Below the pieces are notes generated by a model. The model worked only from the letters and a program-made list of their open reading frames with translations. It was not told the DNA's origin and made no database searches. From a virus (taxonomy: Duplodnaviria; Caudoviricetes): a stretch of DNA of 64,000 nucleotides. Location: the IMG/VR virus record IMGVR_UViG_3300025711_000239, positions 54,645-118,644 of that record; one strand, written 5' to 3'. Numbering within the stretch: position 1 is the first letter of the stretch; each line of letters begins with the position of its first letter. A program made the position numbers and the translations under genes. Shown here piece by piece: positions 7,911-53,160 of the stretch.

Positions 7911-8579
7911 TCAAACACACTCAGTATCCGCCAGTAAGTGTTCGATGCTTGCCATAGTGTAAGCCTTGATCATCAATTCTTTTTCCGTGCCGTTATGCCG
8001 GGAGAATTCTGCTTTACCGCCTGTAATGCCGTCTGCGTGTACCGGCACCAGCCAGTTGAACTCAGCCCGGATTGCTGCCGGTGCAGCGTGCTGGTGATGA
8101 TTATCGCAAAGGGGGAGCTGTAAAAGGTGCGCGCCGGGTTTTGTGCGGCCCTCGATGTGATGCAGGTTGATTACTGGGGATTCCTTTCCGTGTTGTAAGC
8201 AGGCAATGCATGGAAGTTTACCCAGTGCATCCATAACAACGCGCTCGACTGCAGTCGGTGCGCGCCCTTTAAGGCCTCTTCCGGACGCGCTGGCGCGTGT
8301 TTGCCGCTTCGCTGCAACTGGAGCTGGCTTTTTCTCTCTTAGGCGCTCAGAGGCGCTTACAGCGCGTTTTACTGCTTTAGCTTTTTGCTCTGCAATCCAC
8401 TCCGGGGAATTACGCTTTTCAATCTGCCTGGCAAGCATCCTGTTACTGCTGGCTTTCTGCTTTGCGTACTGCTGCTGGCGAAACTCCGGGTCTGCCAGTT
8501 TTGCTGCATGTCTTTCGCGTTGGCGTTGCTGTACTTTTTCCTGCTTTTCCCGTGCGGCCTGAAAATCTGCGCTTTCCAT
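7911..8579 (-). CDS. ref: Ref recombination-enhancement HNH nuclease
   Basis: Basic N-terminal tail; GLKGR..LPCIAC..LHHIEGR..LPLC..HH motifs. Confidence 0.9.
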   Translation of the reverse strand: MESADFQAAREKQEKVQQRQRERHAAKLADPEFRQQQYAKQKASSNRMLARQIEKRNSPEWIAEQKAKAVKRAVSASERLREKKPAPVAAKRQTRASASGRGLKGRAPTAVERVVMDALGKLPCIACLQHGKESPVINLHHIEGRTKPGAHLLQLPLCDNHHQHAAPAAIRAEFNWLVPVHADGITGGKAEFSRHNGTEKELMIKAYTMASIEHLLADTECV

Positions 8580-8689
8580 GATTTAACCAAATCTAAATTA
8601 TTTTTTAGATTGTTGATCACCTTAAGGGATCTGTAAAGCGATATGAAATTGTCCACTGGTTATGGCTTTTAGTTAATCAGCACTGCGGG

Positions 8690-36040: not shown

Positions 36041-36631
36041 TTACACCACCTTCCAGTCGCTTGCGAGAATATCGGTAGAAGCAGGCGACCAGTCAGAGAC
36101 AGTCAGCTGTTCTGCGTCAACGAGCAGAAGCTGAGGCATCTGCGTGACAGTAGCCTCCGGATTGCAGTCAAAGTAACGTGCCGGTACGCCGTACATGTCT
36201 GTTCCCATCAGCGCGGCGCGCATCATGCCTCTGTTGAGTCGGAGATAAACTCCCTTCCCCCATGTTTCCCGTGCCACCTTACAGCCTTCAGATAGCCATA
36301 GTTGTGCCACGGCTAGCGGTGCATGCTCCTGCCTGAAATTCAGTTCGCCCTTCTCAATCATCGCTTCATTTTGCAGGATCAGACCGTTCAACTTAATCAG
36401 CGCGACACAGGCGGCGTGGTTCAGGGTTTCGCCATAACCGGTCATTGTCAGGCCGTTTTTACTGATAACGGCGGCATATCCGGTGTTTTTGGTCTCGGAC
36501 GTCTCTGTAATGGTGTATCCAAGACGGGCAATAACCGCCAGAAGTGCCATATAATCGCCTGCGTAGTCAGCTTCGGCATCTGCGAACATAGCGATCGTGG
36601 CATTTAATTGTTGAGCGGTCATCATTATCAA
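36041..36631 (-). CDS. ABA-sandwich-like domain fused to DUF2829/Tad2-like domain
   Basis: C-terminal LSEGCKVARETW...WSPASTDILASDWKVV. Confidence 0.75.
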   Translation of the reverse strand: MIMMTAQQLNATIAMFADAEADYAGDYMALLAVIARLGYTITETSETKNTGYAAVISKNGLTMTGYGETLNHAACVALIKLNGLILQNEAMIEKGELNFRQEHAPLAVAQLWLSEGCKVARETWGKGVYLRLNRGMMRAALMGTDMYGVPARYFDCNPEATVTQMPQLLLVDAEQLTVSDWSPASTDILASDWKVV

Positions 36632-37344: not shown

Positions 37345-37734
37345 TCAATATTCTGGTAAATAAAATCCGCGAATACGGGTTGCTAACAGTTTATTGCAAA
37401 GGGATATTGCCCCTCTCTGCGCCAGCATCAGCTGTGACTCTACAGGCGATAATTCCTCAAAAAGAGGTGAGTCCTGCATCATTTTAATCATCTGATCTTC
37501 CATGTCTGACAGTATTTTCAACTCCATAATGGCGCGCTGCTGATACGGGTCAAGATGTGAAACATCTTCCATCACGACATAGCTTTCAGCCAGTTCTTGC
37601 TCACTTACTAGGGCAATGCAGGATCCGTGTTCATCCCATAGTGCGTATTTGCACAATCCACTATTCTTTTCTATACGCTCAATGGTTAACGGCTGCGGTC
37701 TGGCTAAAGCGACACGATTTTTACCCTTGTCCAT
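37345..37734 (-). CDS. Protein with crAss001_48-like helical C-terminal domain
   Basis: LDPYQQR...EL....F.ELS..E..LM.AQ..A.....L.TRI..F pattern. Confidence 0.6.
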   Translation of the reverse strand: MDKGKNRVALARPQPLTIERIEKNSGLCKYALWDEHGSCIALVSEQELAESYVVMEDVSHLDPYQQRAIMELKILSDMEDQMIKMMQDSPLFEELSPVESQLMLAQRGAISLCNKLLATRIRGFYLPEY

Positions 37735-39707: not shown

Positions 39708-40144
39708 TGAATATTTGCCGGTGCATACCCGGCGCGGACACTTAGGTATCTGGTCAACCTGTCCGCTTGCGTCACAAATAGGTGTGGAGGCACCTGCCAG
39801 ATTTGCATTGCGTTTGCCTCGCTGCCGAAGCGTTTCCCCGTTTTCAGCCGTCAGCACACCTTGATGCACTCACGGCTGAACCTGAAAAAAAGCCCGGAAA
39901 CTACCGGGCATGAAAGTTACTACACACAGCAAAATCTACTCTGGAATAGACTTTGATTTGTGAAAAAAGAGCGGACTAAACAGACAGTTATGATTAATCC
40001 GCCAAATGCCTATTATGAATTTTGCACGGAGCAGTAAAGTCCTTGTCAGCGGGGAGAAATGTACACAAAGCGGAGTTATGAAGCAATGAAAATCTAAGAA
40101 ATCTCTTAGATTTTCAAAGCACGGTAAAAGGAGGTGACGGAGGA

Positions 40145-41434
40145 TTAGCGGCGCTTTACTTTCGGGTTCTTGATGTTCTCAATGTCGCCGTTCACCTTCG
40201 CCCACTTGATGCACCAGCTGTTCACGGCAGCGCGGATCTCCATCACTGATGCCTCGCTCAGCCCCTTCACCTTCGCCAGTTCTGTAGGCAGTTCACCACC
40301 AGCATCGGCAACCGTCTCATATCCCGCCTTAATCAGTGCGTTAAGGGCGCGTGTCGGTATGGCCAACTCGGAGACCGGCGCGGCTTTGCCATCCAGAATG
40401 CGCTGGTGGAGACGCGGGTAATCGAGCGCTATACGTTTCATGATGCGTGCGTGCAACTCGTCGTTAACAGCGGTATCCCACATCGGCTCAAGGTCCGGCA
40501 GCAGGCGGAATACCGGATTGCCCCATACTCCAGGCACAACGTCCATTGCCAGCATCATCGCGGTGCGGATCTGGAAATGGAAATCAGCCGTTTCAATAGA
40601 GACGTCGCGGATACCGTGGAAGACACTCAGACCAAAGTGGAAGTTGTAGATGTAGCAGCCCACGTCACCGGAGCCGTCCGGCAGCTGAAGCAGGAACTGC
40701 TGCACGTCTTCCCGGCCATCGTGGAAATCGACGCGCTCTTTCAGATTGTTATAAAGCGCAGTTGTCTTAAGCAGGTCATTAGCCGTTTCAGCGCGCAGGC
40801 GGCGCTCATCGCCGACAACCTTATCCGCGATGTTCAGTTTGCTCTGTAAGTCCTGACGCTTAACGCTCTCCTTTTTGCGGTCAGCGCGCATCTGCGAAAT
40901 GGTTTTATCCCGCTCGTTCAGATCAGTTGCCAGGCGTTCAGGGTGTTTACGGCGGTATTGCGTGTGCTCCAGATTGAGCGTTGCCAGCGCCAGCTGCGCG
41001 GTCGTCAGGGCGGACTCCATCCCTTGTAGCTTCGTTTCCGCTTTGATTGCGCGGTTTTCTGCTTCCAGCACGCTTTCTTTTGCCGCGTCTCTTGCTTCTT
41101 CAATGGCGTTCTGTGCATCGAGACGGATTTTCGTTACTTCGTTGTGCAATGCGGACTGCGCGCCCAGCTGCTGCTGCGCCTGCTCCAGCGCCTCTAACAT
41201 CAGATTGTAGGTATCAGCTTCATGGTTGAGGCGCATGCCGATATCGATCTGGATCTGCTCCAGTGCGTTTGTACAGTTATCAAGGAGGCGTAGCTCCAGG
41301 TCATCGAGCGTCAGGCGTTTTCTGACGGAATTAAGCTGGCCGTAAGCGGTGACAAAGGCCTGATGAAGAACATCGTCATCAACGTTACATTCAGGGAGAT
41401 TTTGCAGCTGCTGGAGTGGAGCAAGAGTAGTCAT
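40145..41434 (-). CDS. PmgS-like coiled-coil protein with C-terminal RNAP alpha-CTD-like HhH domain
   Basis: 429 aa; N.EAD..N.L and DF..Q motifs recalled from P1 PmgS; C-terminal EL.IPTRALNALIKAG..TV.D..L.KVKGL. Confidence 0.7.
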   Translation of the reverse strand: MTTLAPLQQLQNLPECNVDDDVLHQAFVTAYGQLNSVRKRLTLDDLELRLLDNCTNALEQIQIDIGMRLNHEADTYNLMLEALEQAQQQLGAQSALHNEVTKIRLDAQNAIEEARDAAKESVLEAENRAIKAETKLQGMESALTTAQLALATLNLEHTQYRRKHPERLATDLNERDKTISQMRADRKKESVKRQDLQSKLNIADKVVGDERRLRAETANDLLKTTALYNNLKERVDFHDGREDVQQFLLQLPDGSGDVGCYIYNFHFGLSVFHGIRDVSIETADFHFQIRTAMMLAMDVVPGVWGNPVFRLLPDLEPMWDTAVNDELHARIMKRIALDYPRLHQRILDGKAAPVSELAIPTRALNALIKAGYETVADAGGELPTELAKVKGLSEASVMEIRAAVNSWCIKWAKVNGDIENIKNPKVKRR

Positions 41435-41576
41435 AATGTGTTATCAGATCCGCGTGTTATTTGCGGCGGATGATAACTCGAAATTGACCACTGTCTAAGG
41501 GTTTTCTTAGATTTCGTTTAACGATTTAGGAGGGATAGCTGGTGGCATTGTTCCGGACTCTGCCACCAGCAGTGGA

Positions 41577-41873
41577 TTACAGCAGTTTCAGCGCCGTTAT
41601 GAATAAGGCAGCAGCAGTAACGATCATCAATACATTCAGCAATACAGAGGGTACTTTGATATCGCCTGACTCATACTCAGCCTGCGTCATCCGCCCTAGG
41701 TAGCTATGCGAGACCAGCACTGCGTTTTCGTCAAAGCTCAGCGTAGCCCGAACTGTCTCCAGCGCCTGACGGGATATCTGACGTGTGGCCAGCTGGACTA
41801 TTCCGGATCGCATCTTGCCGTTGTCACCCATGTAGCAGACCGTATGATAGTGAAATGGCTTGTTCTGGCCCAT
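41577..41873 (-). CDS. Small protein with C-terminal TM segment
   Basis: SYLG.MT..E motif; coupled. Confidence 0.55.
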   Translation of the reverse strand: MGQNKPFHYHTVCYMGDNGKMRSGIVQLATRQISRQALETVRATLSFDENAVLVSHSYLGRMTQAEYESGDIKVPSVLLNVLMIVTAAALFITALKLL

Positions 41874-42391
41874 TAGGCGACTTCCACCCAGTCAGTTACG
41901 CGCATATCGTTAATGCTCAGGTCGTGCATTTCCACGCCGCCGTCCGGTCGGGTCAGAATCAGCACGTCACAGCCTTCATGCTCCTGCTCAAGCGACACAA
42001 AATAACCCGCCCCCCACGCTTCCCGACGCATCAGCAATTCCGGATCTTCTTTCATTCTCAGTAAGGCCTGGTCGTAGCTGCACGTAATGGCACCGATTCC
42101 AATTTTGCTCAAACCTTCGATCTGTGCCGTTGTCATGCGTCCGCGTCCTTCTGTTAATGATTTTCTCAAGATGTAGCTAATCCCCTTCACGCCGCCGAAA
42201 TAGTTCAGCTGGCGGTTGCTCATGCCGCTGCGCGTCATAAGCTCCTGCTTCGGTACTTTGAAAATGCCGACGTCCATAGCAATGTCGGCAAAAACCGAAA
42301 GCCCCCGTCCCAAGCTGTCTCGCGTCTTATTACGGCGCGCATACTGCTCAAACGTGGGGCATCCGGTAAAAAATTGCGCATCAAAAAGCAC
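41873..42391 (-). CDS. TetR-like HTH fused to DUF2829/Tad2-like domain
   Basis: GIFKVPKQELMTRSGMSNRQLNYFGG followed by YDQAL.RMK....MRREAW...DM..TDWVEV. Confidence 0.6.
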   Translation of the reverse strand: MLFDAQFFTGCPTFEQYARRNKTRDSLGRGLSVFADIAMDVGIFKVPKQELMTRSGMSNRQLNYFGGVKGISYILRKSLTEGRGRMTTAQIEGLSKIGIGAITCSYDQALLRMKEDPELLMRREAWGAGYFVSLEQEHEGCDVLILTRPDGGVEMHDLSINDMRVTDWVEVA

Positions 42392-42982
42392 TTATTCGCT
42401 CCAGAATCCGTCGTTCTCATGTGCTGGCATTACTTCACCTGCTTTGAGAACCGCATACTGTTCCATCACGCTGATCGTTTCTTCAGGTGAAAATGATAAA
42501 AGAACGTAATACCCCTGCTCCTTAAGGCGACGCATCCACGTCACCTGATGCTCTGAAGGCATACGCTTACCGTGTTTCTGCTCTACACGCATTCCGTGAT
42601 AGACGCCTGCCGGTATTTCCAGGGACATATCCGGAACGCCCCGCTTTGCGCCTTCAGCCTCAATTGCTGCGGCGGTCGCCTTTAAGCGAAATCCTCCGTT
42701 AGGTACGGCAAACAGATGGTCATAAATAACCCTGTTGTGACGGTGAAAATGGTCAAAGATTCGAACCTGATCGTAATGCTCTTGCCTGCCTTTGCGCAGA
42801 TCGGGATTTTTGACGAGAGCGGCCAGCGCTTTTGCGTGAACCGATATTTCAATAACTGCCGCCAACCATGCAGACGCTTTGCCGGATTTTACCGACGATC
42901 CACCAGCAGATTTTTCTGCTGTTCTGGTGCGGTTTTTTTGATTTTTTTTATAAGAGTGCAACCACTCTTCACTGAAGCGCAT
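42392..42982 (-). CDS. VRR-NUC nuclease (P1 Mat-like position)
   Basis: EH..Q, AVPNGG, GVPD, VEQK and SEHQ..W motifs; probable start MRFSEEWL. Confidence 0.8.
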   Translation of the reverse strand: MRFSEEWLHSYKKNQKNRTRTAEKSAGGSSVKSGKASAWLAAVIEISVHAKALAALVKNPDLRKGRQEHYDQVRIFDHFHRHNRVIYDHLFAVPNGGFRLKATAAAIEAEGAKRGVPDMSLEIPAGVYHGMRVEQKHGKRMPSEHQVTWMRRLKEQGYYVLLSFSPEETISVMEQYAVLKAGEVMPAHENDGFWSE

Positions 42983-43118
42983 ATCCGGATTTGCCAACCG
43001 ATGATTAATTAGTCTAAAAGATGGATCTGCGTTGGGGGCTATTTTTAACGCTGAGACGGGAAAAAACAAGCCTGTAATCTACATCTTTGAAAGATAGTCA
43101 TTACAGGCAGTTACCTTT

Positions 43119-43283
43119 TTACTGGTGAGCCATCCACATGAACGCCAGGGTATAGATAAGACCGATAGTGCTAAGGCAAAGCGTGACGAATCTGCCGATC
43201 ACATTAGAAAAAGGCGTGACTTTTGCGGTAATAGCCTTGTTTGAGGTGGCATTAACAAAATCACGCTGCGCAAAATTTTTCAT
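43119..43283 (-). CDS. 54-aa protein with C-terminal TM segment
   Basis: Manual translation MKNFAQRDF...LCLSTIGLIYTLAFMWMAHQ; AG-rich SD. Confidence 0.4.
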   Translation of the reverse strand: MKNFAQRDFVNATSNKAITAKVTPFSNVIGRFVTLCLSTIGLIYTLAFMWMAHQ

Positions 43284-43435
43284 GTTATATTCTCTCTGTT
43301 GTGCGCAGGGGTGTACGTCGCCAAACTGAACCCCTGCGAAAGTGAAAGCCCGGCCATATGGTCGGGCTTTTTCTTGGTCGCCGCCTTAGCTGCTTAATGC
43401 AATCTAAGGGTTTTCTAATTTACCGTCAATTAAAA

Positions 43436-43720
43436 TCACGACTTTTCGTCACTTTTCGTCTGTGGCAAGGCTTCTCCGGCATTTTTCAGGCGTGATAATG
43501 CGTCCTGTAGTGCGAAAATCCAGCTACTTTTATCCAGCTCCCGTACCCGCTTAACTCTCTCCTGGGTGTAAGGATTAATAACCCAAACCCATGTTTCACT
43601 GTCCTGGCGATCTCGCATCGTAAATACCCCAGTTGGGGGGTAAAAACTCAGCTCAGCGCCATTCACATAGGCATAGGCTTCCAGTTCCTCCAGCTTAAGG
43701 TGTTTATTCTCTCGCGGCAC
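43436..43720 (-). CDS. Lxc-like modulator (by synteny)
   Basis: darB-ulx-lxc order and size as in P1. Confidence 0.45.
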   Translation of the reverse strand: MPRENKHLKLEELEAYAYVNGAELSFYPPTGVFTMRDRQDSETWVWVINPYTQERVKRVRELDKSSWIFALQDALSRLKNAGEALPQTKSDEKS

Positions 43721-43728
43721 GGTCTCTC

Positions 43729-44157
43729 CTAAAATCTTCTTTTCTCTATGGATTCATCATAGCTGACGTACAGGTAAGGTTCAGTATCATCCGCTGACGG
43801 CATCACAGGAAGCAGATGCACCGCGCTGAATACGGCATCATTTTCTGTCCGGTCGTCAGCGTACAGGTGCGCAGCTATGACCGTAAGAGCAGGACGCGAA
43901 AGCGAGTATATTTCAGCTACATCACTTTCGACTACCTGCCCAAATTTAGTATTAGCACGTTCAAGCAATAACGTTTTGACTGCAGGCCACCACGGGCCAA
44001 ATGCCCGATACGCGAACCTGGTACTGCTGACGCGCTTTACTAAATTTTCCAGATAGTTTACTAAAAATACTTCTTCGGTTCGCCCGTCCAGCGCCAGTGG
44101 TAGCAGGCTTTCAATGTAAGTCTCGGTTGGCTTGATAGTATCAATCAGTGTCGTCAT
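43729..44157 (-). CDS. Ulx-like protein
   Basis: YRAFGPWWPAVK motif; directly downstream of darB. Confidence 0.65.
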   Translation of the reverse strand: MTTLIDTIKPTETYIESLLPLALDGRTEEVFLVNYLENLVKRVSSTRFAYRAFGPWWPAVKTLLLERANTKFGQVVESDVAEIYSLSRPALTVIAAHLYADDRTENDAVFSAVHLLPVMPSADDTEPYLYVSYDESIEKRRF

Positions 44158-44188
44158 GTTAGACGGCCCTCGCGGGGCCGCTCCTGAA

Positions 44189-47100
44189 TTATGCGTTAAC
44201 AATGTCGTTGCGTAACGCATCGAGATCGTGGGAAGAAGGGATAAGCCAGGCGGCTTGTGTAAACTCGTTTCCGGCTACCGGGTTTTCTTCGAAATTCCAG
44301 AATTTCGCGCCGTACTTCTCTTTAATCAGGTCACGCACTGCTTTGCGCTTAAGTACCGGCTTGTCGCTGGTATCCATCAGCACGTAGGCACCTCCAGCCG
44401 GGAAGTCGATTTTAAAGGTGCGGTTCATCCACTTACGCGAGGCCACCAACTCCTGCTCATTTTTCATTACCTGGAAGCCATCAGCCTGCTTCTGTACCTG
44501 GACTGTGCGCACGGTCGCTGCTGCAGCCACAGCGCGCTGGCTTGCTGCTTCACGGCGGGCCTTTACGTCTTCAGGCGACAGTTTGCCGATCATCAGCGCT
44601 TTATAGTCGTCCCACGTCGTCGCGTACTCGCGGTAATCGCCTTTTTCCATTCGATCCAGCCACAGATAAACCATCGTTAGCTGCCGCTTAATAGCGTTGG
44701 ATGAGGCGAATGTTTCAACGGTAATTCCGGCGTCATCGAGCGCACCCAGTGAAACGCCGGCGCGCAGATAAATTGCAGCCGGTGACTCCGTTACGGTTGC
44801 TGCCCGGTCAATGTCACTGTAAGCATCAAACTTAGACTTCACCAGCAGCACGGCAATACCGGCCTGGCTATCACTCTCGCTCATCTGGCGGAACTGCTGC
44901 AGCGCGGCGGCGGCATACTGTTCTGTCAGTGATTTGACAGCCTGCACCTTGCCGTCCGCCATCTCGTTACGCAGGTGTTCGAACATTGCTTCGTACTCAT
45001 GACGGTTAGAGAAGCCCTCCATGCCGTTACGGAACTGACGAAGGCTGATAACGTTGCTCCAGTAGTAACGGTCCTGCGCCGAATCCAGGAAGGCGGCATG
45101 TGCCTCTTCATCATTCGCGCCGGTCACTGACCGCTTTTTGGGGTCGTTCGCTTCGAACTCGGCCACCAGTCGGTTAAAGACTTTAACCACGTCCGCCATG
45201 CCCGCCTGCTTCCCGTAAGCCTGCAATGCCGTGTCGTAATTACGGCCAAACATTGCCTTAAAGAAGCCCTGGGCGCTGTAGATGTTGTTGTCCACGCTGT
45301 ACTGATAAAGCTCACGCTTCAACTGCTCGTCGGTGTGGTCCGGGTACAGCCACGTTTCAGCCGGTCGCTCTTCGCTGGCGCTGATCGTGCCTCTCAAGTA
45401 AGCCAGTTTCAGCCTGCCGTCATTGTCGCGGTAGAGCCATCCGTCCGTGTTCACATTCAGGACGCCCGCGTGAATGGCCGCATAGAAGTCAGCACGGCTT
45501 AGCGTGTCCGCCAGGTTTACCGGCTCGATTCCCTTCGCTGCTGTCTGGAGCGCTTTTGCCTGGTCACTGGTGATATCCACGCGGTCGCCCACCAGCGCAG
45601 ACGGCATTTCAGCAAAGCCACCGACATTCGGACCGGTATAGCAGCGCAGCGGCTTGTGGATCAGCTCAACCTCAACCGTATTTTTCTCCGGGAAGAATTT
45701 ACGGATCTGGAATACGCCCTTTTCTTCACGGTCATCGTTTAGCCAGATTTCATAGGTCGCGCCAATTCGCACCAGCTGGCCGTCTGGCAGTTTCATGTAC
45801 TGCTCCGGGGCGCGCAGCACGTCCGGATCGACTTCCAGCGCGCCGGATTTAATTGCGCGTTCCACTTCACCGCGGGAGCGCTTAATGGTGCTGGCTGCAC
45901 TTTTGGAGCGCGTCAGCGCCTTACGTGCGCCGCCCAACTCCTGCTCCAGCTTTTTCTGCTTCGCCAGACCTTCACGCAGTGCAGCACGTGCTACACGACG
46001 ATCCTGACCGCGCCAGGCATCAGCTGACCGCTTGCCGTCTCTTTCAAGCTCACGGTTATAGGCTGCTTCTGCGTCGGTGACGTCCTCACGCAGGCCATCA
46101 ATCTCGCCGTTGATCGCATCAAAGGCAGCAGACAGCTTGGTAATATTGCCTTCCAGCACTTCAACTGGCGTGGCGGCAGCAACGCTTGCCTTCAGGTAGA
46201 TATCCAGCGCGGCAGCGGCTTCGCGCTCGGCCTGCTGGCGGTCGGCTTCCCGCTTAGCTTTCAGCTGTGCATCCACGCGGGCGCGACGCTCTTCCGGGTT
46301 AGCGGCCAGCAGCAGGCTTTGCTCTTCTTTCGACTCCACATCGCCGTTTTTGATACTGGACACGTCGGATTTCATAACGTCATTGATCCAGTTTTTCTTG
46401 CGCTGCAGCGTCTCCAGGCGGAACTCGTCAAATGATCCTTTGCCACAATAGTAATGCACGCGCATGGTGTCGCGCTCGGAGCCCACGCGGGCGCCGCGTC
46501 CGTTACGCTGATCGATACTGGCTGGCGTCCAGGGGAGTGTCAGATGGTGCGTATCAGCGGTGCCTTTGTGCAGGTTTATCCCTACTTCGGCCTTTTTGTT
46601 GCAGATGATGATCGGCGTGCGGCCTTCGTTATAGTCGGCGGCAATGCCTTCCATCCCGGCCAGAGAGGCGTCACTCAGTGCGGCCTGATAATCCTCATAG
46701 CGCGCCAGTTCCTCATAGTACTTATCCCATGAGCCGTCCTTAAAACTGCCGTCTGCTTTTTCCACCGGCTCCACCGGCTTCTTAACGGGCTTCACCTTCA
46801 CGCCAGAGGCTTTGCTGACTGTTGTGGCATTGATAATGCCTACCTGCTGCTCCGTGAGGCCTAGGGCGCTGGCGATAATGCGGCGCAGCTTGTTGTGCTG
46901 GGACTTTTCATCCATGAAGATGATCTGTTTACCATCCGGCAGTCCTGCCTTCAGGTTCTCAATCAGCGCGGCATACTTGGGCGGTACCGGGTGTGAGACG
47001 TTTTCCATGCTGATACCGGCAGACGCGATCGCGGCCAGTACCTGCTGCTCCAGCGTGTCACTCACCACCAGCTCCACGACGCCCCCGCGATTCTTCAGCG

Positions 47101-52902: not shown

Positions 52903-53160
52903 TCAGTGAAGCAGCGAAATAACCTGCCAGTCAGCTGACAAAATATCTTCAGGCGTTGGATCATATATTGATAACTCGCCGGACTCGCCCATGAATATAA
53001 ATTGCATCTGACTATCTGAATCGGCCTGCGTGAATACGTGAATAGGTGTATCGCCCCATTTTGCACGGCGACAGATAGTACTGTCAGTCAGGCTTATGGC
53101 AAGCATGGCATTGGCGAACCTAAGCACCGCCTGGGATGGCGTATAAGAGATATCAGGCAT
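52903..53160 (-). CDS. Stand-alone DUF2829/Tad2-like protein
   Basis: FANAM....RRAKW...YDPTPEDILSADWQVI; SD GAGGAG. Confidence 0.7.
   Translation of the reverse strand: MPDISYTPSQAVLRFANAMLAISLTDSTICRRAKWGDTPIHVFTQADSDSQMQFIFMGESGELSIYDPTPEDILSADWQVISLLH

Follow-up and report, generated by a model that had tools for sequence, protein, structure and literature searches.

What does a phage-plasmid do with an immune-signal sponge that is built into the same polypeptide as a DNA-binding-type domain? To our knowledge, phage sponge proteins have until now been portrayed as sinks that absorb immune signals passively, in some cases joined to another sponge. The gene considered here, from a P1/D6-like phage-plasmid of Pantoea, encodes a different arrangement, in which the sponge fold is permanently joined to a domain of DNA-binding type and the pairing is conserved across a phage-plasmid lineage. 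Such an arrangement suggests either self-regulated sponge production, as in anti-CRISPR/Aca systems, or viral readout of host immune second messengers, and either option would extend knowledge of how counter-defence is regulated. The window, by which we mean the whole 64,000-nucleotide stretch of DNA that was analysed, contains the gene and its predicted domains at the following positions.

41873..42391, minus strand: coding sequence of the HTH-Tad2 fusion, 172 aa plus stop, with a GTG start (open reading frame list and sequence)
42086..42391, minus strand: N-terminal domain, residues 1-102, basic, all-helical, with a predicted TetR_N-like HTH fold and no sequence family
42200..42250, minus strand: predicted helix-turn-helix proper, helices 48-55 and 59-64 (predicted secondary structure, invariant columns)
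41876..42085, minus strand: C-terminal domain, residues 103-172, a minimal, acidic Tad2-like (DUF2829) domain (PF11195, Foldseek, VIA-align)

The initial annotation had proposed a TetR-like HTH followed by a Tad2/DUF2829 domain on the strength of two residue patterns, and both are present in the translation: a TetR-type pattern (G42..V46..E50 L51..R54 S55 G56 M57 S58.R60 Q61 L62.Y64 F65 G66 G67) and a DUF2829 signature (A109..M113 K114..R122 R123.A125 W126, then D162....D167 W168.E170). This anatomy was borne out by a PF11195 match and by structure models, with the likeness to TetR confined to the level of the fold. The MLFxAxFF N-terminus that follows from the GTG start is conserved in the 13 cluster representatives. 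The size of the element is given as 90 kb; two RNA libraries (X4 and X7) each yielded one 98-kb contig of flat depth, for which DNA carry-over is likely. Contigs from a third RNA library (X2) span 42041-43164 and 41866-42050 over the gene, although contigs of this kind say nothing about transcription, and carried-over DNA is a likely source here too.

The fusion is rare, fixed and obligate. Searched with HMMER against 1.84 billion proteins in full, the N-terminal domain returned 2 representatives; all 12 clusters found consist of proteins of 172-184 aa, and the domain was found only in proteins of this length and always with a Tad2 domain. Because the same architecture and synteny recur down to 30-34% identity, the fusion is more than a chance joining. 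Purifying selection acts on both halves, with dN/dS of 0.13 for the N-terminal and 0.23 for the C-terminal domain, the former being the more constrained, and the short linker between them (K96-I102) hardly varies among relatives as distant as 49% identity. A tblastn search of the protein against 50,697 phage records and a megablast search of the neighbourhood gave no match. The HTH-Tad2 combination has apparently not been described before: we did not find it in the literature, although the 650 to 2,783 homologues of the Tad2 surveys may include members of the family. Among four carrier genomes, a small and incomplete sample, one encodes a SMODS (CD-NTase) domain and none a TIR_2 domain.

The N-terminal half is probably a DNA-binding domain with a TetR-type HTH fold, as judged from its models and composition. 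It has a pI of 10.1, as against 4.3 for the C-terminal domain, and eight of its basic residues (R19, R20, K22, R24, K48, R60, K69 and R76) are invariant in the 13 representatives. Within and just after the predicted HTH the invariant positions are K48, R60 and Y64, followed by G66 G67. K69 G70. Modelled alone, the domain folds confidently (pLDDT 88.6, pTM 0.82). All of the 50 best VIA-align rows for this model, headed by a KstR-DNA complex at Z 8.0, and 48 of the 50 best for the full model, with Z up to 8.6, are TetR-type or other transcription regulators; Z runs from 5.7 to 8.6 across both models, and values up to 8.6 are of a size that, by the tool's own guidance, helical models often reach. 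Foldseek likewise returned mostly TetR-type regulators for the domain alone, with probabilities up to 0.96 and E values of about 1 or worse. The predicted helices in residues 21-81 superpose on TetR alpha1-alpha4 with an rmsd of 1.3-3 Å over 55-84 residues, so that the predicted arrangement is a three-helix HTH plus helix 4 as in TetR, at the level of the fold.

Membership of the TetR_N sequence family, for which the initial annotation had suggested an HMM search, did not hold up: residues 1-105 match no Pfam family even at E<=10, and hhalign against 17 TetR_N domains from one genome (G003) gave P 0.007 and a probability of 5%, with residues 35-69 set in HTH register. The stretch placed in this register reads G..(S/T)...L....G(M/V)S...L.Y...K. 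Residues ~19-99 have no match in Pfam (E<=10), NCBIfam, PHROGs or PADLOC. Profile and single-sequence searches of PDB sequences gave chance matches only, and a search of the ESM Atlas gave no usable match.

The C-terminal half fared better, and modelled as Tad2 as the initial annotation had anticipated. It scores 26.0 bits against PF11195 (Tad2-like) over residues 105-171 (E 1.4e-5), a margin of 1 bit over the cut-off of 25. A relative of 34% identity (P0007), named Thoeris anti-defense Tad2 family protein at NCBI, clears the cut-off with 28.5 bits, and two others fall below it (P0005, 22.4 bits; the CP009882 protein, 18.4 bits). The best 10 PDB rows of Foldseek are all Tad2 chains at probability 1.00; for the full model these rows have E values of 0.03-0.06 and TM scores on the target of 0.57-0.70. 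VIA-align places ModTad2 (Z 8.5, rmsd 2.4, 67 residues aligned) and AcrIIA7/HgmTad2 (Z 8.4) over residues 103-172, these being 2 of its 50 rows. The pLDDT of this half in the full model is 67-84, and a search of PDB sequences gave no sequence-level match between the fusion protein and solved Tad2 chains. Like SPO1 Tad2, HgmTad2/AcrIIA7 and ModTad2, the predicted domain has a helix-plus-antiparallel-sheet fold with RR..W and D....DW motifs, which are invariant in the 13 representatives. The element carries two further genes of this kind, the first of which is annotated as "MW1434 family type I TA system toxin" in NZ_CP141613.

36041..36631, minus strand: second Tad2-like gene, 196 aa, an extra N-terminal domain plus Tad2 (PF11195, 44.3 bits, residues 112-196)
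52903..53160, minus strand: third Tad2-like gene, 85 aa, stand-alone (PF11195, 29.3 bits)

Whether the fusion could still hold an immune signal depends on its pocket. The preprint passage on SPO1 Tad2 names W25, N26, W73 and D79 as ligand contacts in the central pocket. In a MAFFT mapping, W25 corresponds to W126 and D79 to D162, both invariant in the 13 representatives; N26 corresponds to G127, a position held by G, E, K, P, S or Q among relatives, and W73 to H156, where 5 of the 13 have H and the other 8 have Y. As aligned, the pocket is partly canonical, with two of the four key SPO1 contacts kept and two replaced. Replacements of a similar kind stand at the N26 and W73 positions in the element's other Tad2-like genes. 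The beta2-beta3 insertion is the shortest among the aligned Tad2 domains. In HgmTad2 this insertion is described as the cyclic dinucleotide binding region, in the part of the preprint that concerns it (10.1101/2023.11.15.567273), and its shortness therefore argues against binding of CBASS dinucleotides at that site. Unlike the solved Tad2 proteins, the fusion adds an N-terminal HTH-like domain of ~100 aa, has the N26 and W73 equivalents replaced and carries a minimal insertion.

We tentatively favour a reading in which the fusion is a two-domain anti-defence protein, a Tad2 sponge that also binds DNA, on the pattern of anti-CRISPR/Aca fusions. The Tad2 domain would most likely homotetramerise like the solved Tad2 proteins, and the central pockets where protomers meet would capture an immune signal that is TIR-derived and of ADP-ribose type. 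A four-copy complex prediction of the fusion protein scored 0.00 against a mark of 0.42, which informs neither way on the tetramer. Oligomerisation through Tad2 may in turn present the basic HTH domains in pairs for binding to phage DNA, and the HTH would most likely control its own or a neighbouring transcription unit, for which the Aca-type HTH of anti-CRISPRs offers a precedent. Sponge and regulator would thereby share one polypeptide, and ligand-controlled DNA binding would not be required. AcrIIA1 is a further anti-CRISPR with a built-in Aca-type HTH. In AcrIF24 and AcrIIA15, HTH and inhibitor likewise form one polypeptide, and the HTH is reported to repress the promoter of the protein itself (PMC9638941, PMC9001735, PMC10901769). 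Like these two proteins, the fusion, by its models and its PF11195 match, joins an HTH-like and an anti-defence domain. Unlike it, AcrIF24 and AcrIIA15 are encoded in acr operons and block Cas effectors through direct protein contact, whereas the second domain of the fusion has a small-molecule sponge fold.

The gene's surroundings bear on this reading from two sides. The immediate neighbours are as follows.

42392..43069, minus strand: upstream gene of VRR-NUC / pmgM-like nuclease fold (phrog_2363, E 1e-52, from residue 31)
41577..41873, minus strand: downstream pmgR-like gene, 98 aa (phrog_3177, E 5e-33)

The GTG of the fusion gene directly abuts the stop of the VRR-NUC gene, and the ATG of the pmgR-like gene overlaps the fusion-gene stop; the gene lies within a string and is coupled in translation to the genes on either side. 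The real start of the VRR-NUC gene is probably the ATG at 42982, which is kept in 12 of 13 aligned loci, the thirteenth (L027) aligning poorly there. The pmgM-like protein of D6 passes VRR_NUC, and the pmgR-like gene is the equivalent of D6 orf10 ("similar to P1 pmgR"). By tblastn the latter gene is syntenic in 26 of 27 loci, and L027 has a 97-aa ORF in that place. In D6 the slot of the fusion gene is taken by orf11, which is unrelated to it (BLASTP E 13, no Pfam family). A survey across related phage-plasmids, as suggested at the outset, found the fusion kept together with its gene order, darB-ulx-...-VRR-NUC-fusion gene-pmgR-pmgS, in 27 of 27 related loci of P1/D6-like elements. The presence of darB and ulx upstream makes this an anti-defence neighbourhood, in a gene string devoted to morphogenesis and anti-restriction. 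Acr-aca units open an anti-defence operon, and classic TetR regulators adjoin a divergent promoter. The fusion gene has no divergent promoter beside it, and its mid-string position, unlike the place of acr-aca units at the operon head, weakens even the DNA-binding-sponge reading that we prefer.

A second possibility, which the initial annotation had put forward and which we consider unlikely, is that the protein is a ligand-responsive one-component regulator: the Tad2 pocket would bind a host immune signal (from Thoeris or CBASS in the annotation's version, TIR-derived in ours), occupancy would alter the geometry or affinity of the HTH pair, and phage genes would switch, with escape from a doomed lysogen or expression of late or anti-defence genes as example outputs. 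If true, the protein would let a virus sense bacterial immune second messengers, beyond just mopping them up, and it would be a natural ligand-controlled repressor for Thoeris-type signals that could be useful as a biosensor. The domain order matches that of TetR regulators (KstR, NalC, AcrR; PF00440), in which an N-terminal HTH precedes a small-molecule-binding oligomerisation domain. Unlike theirs, the sequence of the fusion has no TetR_N match, and its gene has no divergently oriented target gene as a partner. Its C-terminal half is predicted to be beta-rich and Tad2-like in place of the all-helical ligand-binding and dimerisation domain of TetR (helices 4-9), which is missing, so that strictly speaking the fusion does not belong to the TetR family of regulators. 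The near invariance of the K96-I102 linker suggests a fixed coupling instead of a floppy tether, and the restriction of the N-terminal domain to Tad2 fusions also speaks for this reading. Since the two other Tad2-like genes could do plain sequestration, the copy in the fusion may have a different job. Against it stand the half-canonical pocket and the preprint's account of Tad2 itself, which in the section concerned describes mainly local loop closure on ligand binding and no movement of the N-terminal helix, the point where the HTH would attach (10.1101/2023.11.15.567273).

In favour of a sensor, the promoter of the next unit, pmgS, contains an exact palindrome.

41494..41511, no strand assigned: exact 18-bp palindrome TCTAAG-N6-CTTAGA (motif B) in the pmgS promoter region; candidate regulator site
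40093..40110, no strand assigned: the palindrome again, in an exact copy immediately downstream of pmgS

The initial annotation had noted two operator families in the window, one of which needs a regulator other than C1, and motif B was considered as an operator of the fusion. The exact palindrome is real in the window, where TCTAAR-N6-YTTAGA has 3 exact copies against 0.02 expected for a pattern chosen after the copies were seen; its assignment to the fusion protein did not survive. With up to 2 mismatches the motif occurs 8 times, which is no enrichment over the 5.9 +/- 2.5 expected. The copy at 41494..41511 overlaps the -35-like TAGACA of a predicted promoter, the right half of the motif coincides with -10/-35-like hexamers, and its "partial copies" share mainly CTTAGA(A/T)T, which resembles a -10 hexamer. 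Exact copies number 0 in five other records, three from distant fusion carriers and two from the non-carriers D6 and JK004, so that neither co-occurrence nor independence can be argued. We rejected motif B as the operator of the fusion protein; that no operator detectably co-varies with the protein also speaks against a sensor.

We also doubt a third explanation, that the N-terminal domain does not bind DNA and is instead a second sponge module or an adaptor, making the protein a two-headed sponge, or a Tad2 that is brought to a partner, say for packaging with the Dar proteins. The darB/ulx system of P1 is packaged into the capsid, and its genes are neighbours of the fusion gene. N-terminal fusions to Tad2 are known in Acb4-Tad2 and Tad2-Sequestin, which have been modelled as homotetramers; there the Acb4 and Sequestin (PF21825) partners are themselves sponge domains, and Sequestin is short and alpha-helical (PMC12265669). 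The same report describes sponge pockets as positively charged (PMC12265669), so a basic pI alone does not point to DNA, and the TetR likeness of the N-terminal domain is at middling Z. Unlike in those fusions, however, the partner domain of this protein shows no match to either Acb4 or Sequestin and looks DNA-binding-like: PF21825 and PF13876 give no hit in it at E<=10, its 50 best structural rows are all transcription regulators of one family and not mixed helical bundles, and hhalign sets its conserved stretch in TetR-HTH register.

That the protein is an ordinary phage transcription factor, with the Tad2 fold recruited solely for oligomerisation and binding no immune signal, would fit a C-terminal domain that is the less constrained half, lies barely over the PF11195 cut-off (and below it in two relatives), has two of four key contacts replaced and carries so short an insertion, but is quite unlikely given that the equivalents of W25 and D79, which line the SPO1 ligand and are not obviously structural, never vary among the 13 representatives, which reach down to 31% identity, and that the other two replacements resemble those in the element's further Tad2-like genes.

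Returning to the DNA-binding sponge, we found no conserved operator-like palindrome directly upstream of the fusion gene's own unit. Three inverted repeats considered as operators, at 43070-43108 (followed by a T-run), at 43340-43375 and, containing Chi, at 41538-41570, are better explained as terminator-like hairpins.

The fusion gene lies between two neighbors on the same strand, upstream of which sits a small open reading frame:

41873-42391, minus strand: HTH-Tad2 fusion gene, 172-codon ORF starting with GTG
42392-43069, minus strand: VRR-NUC/pmgM-like gene, upstream of the fusion gene, its stop directly before the fusion GTG
41577-41873, minus strand: pmgR-like gene, downstream of the fusion gene, its ATG overlapping the fusion gene's stop
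43119-43283, minus strand: 54-aa ORF whose C-terminal half is hydrophobic, between two hairpins, with a promoter-like site ahead

Because of these two junctions, the three larger genes look translationally coupled. The GTG start is supported by conservation of the N-terminal motif MLFxAxFF, which was kept in 13/13 aligned cluster representatives. The VRR-NUC gene is probably annotated too early at TTG 43069, with ATG 42982 (residue 30) the more likely start. Of the 13 aligned loci, 12 keep this codon, and the thirteenth (the distant IMG/VR contig L027) aligns poorly there; the PHROG match of the protein starts at residue 31, and the hairpin at 43070-43108, terminator-like and trailed by a T-run, falls within the "extension". 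The order upstream of this gene is promoter-like site, hairpin, conserved 54-aa ORF, and terminator-like hairpin with T-run. The 54-aa ORF had a tblastn match in 26/27 related loci (51-100% identity), and a family search assigned it to no family.

The initial annotation had described the C-terminus as Tad2-like (DUF2829), and this assignment held. PF11195 (Tad2-like) matched residues 105-171 with 26.0 bits (E 1.4e-5), a margin of one bit over the Pfam cut-off of 25. A relative, P0007 (34% identical), scored 28.5 bits, above the cut-off, and already carries the database name Thoeris anti-defense Tad2 family protein, while two other relatives fell under it at 22.4 and 18.4 bits. When the full-length AlphaFold2 model (alignment of 6 sequences, mean pLDDT 78.9) was compared with the PDB by Foldseek, the best 10 rows were all Tad2 chains, from SPO1 Tad2 and Myroides Tad2 (probability 1.00, E 0.03-0.06, TM on target 0.57-0.70). 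VIA-align likewise matched modeled residues 103-172 to ModTad2 (Z 8.5) and AcrIIA7/HgmTad2 (Z 8.4). A comparison by sequence alone found none of the solved Tad2 chains.

The N-terminal half had been called a TetR-type HTH, a claim that stood for the predicted fold and not for the sequence family: Pfam (including TetR_N), NCBIfam, PHROG, and PADLOC returned no family for this domain, even at E<=10. The model of residues 1-104 (alignment of 12 sequences) was confident (pLDDT 88.6, pTM 0.82) and had seven helices. In a search of 48,161 chains independent of Foldseek, all of the best 50 rows were TetR-type or other transcription regulators, from a KstR-operator complex at the top (Z 8.0, rmsd 3.0, 71 residues) to Z 5.7 at rank 50. 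The tool itself warns that Z below 8, or below ~13 for helical models, may reflect a common arrangement, so the argument for a TetR fold rests on the uniform match list and not on the score. With the full model, the best 50 VIA-align rows comprised 48 such regulators plus 2 Tad2 proteins. TetR proteins also predominated in Foldseek with the N-domain alone, with probabilities up to 0.96 and E-values of ~1 or worse. Profile-profile comparison with the 17 TetR_N domains of a control genome gave P 0.007 and a probability of 5%; residues 35-69 fell on the HTH, with K69 on the conserved TetR_N lysine. Collectively, these results indicate that the N-domain likely adopts a TetR_N-like HTH fold, a resemblance at the level of fold, with TetR sequence-family membership unsupported by profile searches. 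Unlike TetR regulators, the fusion protein is without their defining helical ligand-binding domain.

The N-domain is basic (pI 10.1, compared to 4.3 for the C-domain), and its invariant residues include R19, R20, K22, R24, K48, R60, Y64, G66, G67, K69, G70, and R76. This anatomy, a basic HTH-like domain, conserved linker, and Tad2 domain, together with the reported precedents of sponge fusions (PMC12265669) and of Acr proteins with built-in HTH repressors (abstracts of PMC9638941, PMC9001735, and PMC10901769), points to a DNA-binding Tad2 protein. The reading we rank first, though tentatively, is that one polypeptide would be bifunctional, acting as both sponge and regulator. No HTH-Tad2 fusion was described in the literature searched; as far as these sources go, the combination appears new, while Tad2 fusions with other sponges and HTH-Acr fusions are already known.

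The initial annotation had instead proposed a regulator controlled by its ligand, a reading we consider less likely than the bifunctional one; the computed results do not tell the two apart. According to the preprint on SPO1 Tad2, 1''-3' gcADPR is contacted mainly by W25, N26, W73, and D79. The Pfam model served to identify SPO1 Tad2 in NC_011421, and its sequence was aligned to the Tad2 domains from the window, D6, and JK004, the last two lacking the fusion gene. W25 and D79 correspond to W126 and D162 of the fusion, both invariant among 13 representatives; N26 corresponds to G127 (G/E/K/P/S/Q among relatives) and W73 to H156 (H in 5/13, Y in 8/13). HgmTad2 is reported to form its cyclic-dinucleotide site from the beta2-beta3 insertion region (10.1101/2023.11.15.567273), whereas in the fusion that insertion is minimal, the shortest among the aligned domains. 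Since the Tad2 family is described as having diversified to His-ADPR, N7-cADPR, and cUMP (10.1101/2025.08.24.671296), this half-canonical pocket, as judged from the alignment, is compatible with a different ligand or, equally, with none.

We also searched for operators. The palindrome proposed earlier as motif B (TCTAAR-N6-YTTAGA) occurred in 3 exact copies in the window versus 0.02 expected, the second and third flanking pmgS:

8592-8609: exact palindrome
40093-40110: exact palindrome
41494-41511: exact palindrome, overlapping the predicted pmgS promoter at its -35-like hexamer and adjoining a conserved CAGTGGTTAATTTC stretch

The search could link no site to the fusion protein. Three distant fusion carriers had zero exact copies of the palindrome, as had D6 and JK004, and the right half degenerates at the pmgS promoter of distant loci. 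An N-domain that does not bind DNA at all is, in our assessment, about as likely as the ligand-controlled regulator. Less likely still is a transcription factor that uses Tad2 solely for oligomerization, and a small share of probability falls outside these four readings.

HMMER with the N-domain through all 1.84 billion protein representatives found 2 proteins (184 aa and 182 aa), and word-indexed searches with the whole protein and the N-domain profile brought the total to 12 clusters, every one 172-184 aa and none shorter or longer. By tblastn, 6 plasmid records carried the fusion (5 Pantoea and 1 labelled Acinetobacter), and 50,697 phage records gave no match. A related-locus search yielded 25 loci, 21 of them from IMG/VR and 4 from genomes (Pantoea in three cases, Enterobacter in one); long contigs bearing the gene were 86-98 kb. 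With two plasmid regions added, this survey of related phage-plasmids found the same gene order in 27/27 loci: darB, ulx, a 94-aa gene, (the 54-aa ORF), VRR-NUC/pmgM-like, fusion gene, pmgR-like, and pmgS. The order held at 30% identity in the most distant locus, L027 (86 kb), whose homologue (7995-8543, 182 aa, 30-34% identity, neighbors unchanged) begins with a TTG that overlaps the stop codon of VRR-NUC; the cluster of this homologue, recorded from Atlantibacter hermannii, already bears the name Tad2 family protein at NCBI. In phage D6, the slot holds an unrelated 66-aa ORF. Median dN/dS was 0.13 in the N-domain versus 0.23 in the C-domain (151 non-independent pairs from 22 equal-length gene copies).

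The element is a P1/D6-like phage-plasmid that encodes PmgS-like, Ulx-like, DarB-like, and Lpa proteins. Two further genes passed PF11195, giving three Tad2-domain proteins, compared to two passing genes in D6 and one in JK004:

36041-36631, minus strand: second Tad2-like gene, with an extra N-terminal domain (44.3 bits)
52903-53160, minus strand: third Tad2-like gene (29.3 bits)

In a RefSeq plasmid, the product of 36041-36631 is labelled "MW1434 family type I TA system toxin", which looks like a misleading name for a Tad2-domain protein. A 129-aa ORF (37345-37734, minus strand) matched PF21825 (crAss001_48), to which the Sequestin sponges belong, only below threshold, at 14 bits where 24.8 are required (E 0.048). 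The stretch separating the pmgR-like gene from pmgS contains a perfect inverted repeat (41538-41570; 10-bp arms, 13-nt loop), which includes the Chi octamer GCTGGTGG and is kept in Pantoea-type loci. Finally, two sequencing runs labelled as transcriptomes of one organism (X4 and X7) each gave a single 98-kb contig of flat depth (compared over 40100-44300), ~90% alike to the window with short diverged blocks at 41873-41939 and 43164-43233; a whole related element was assembled out of an "RNA" library.
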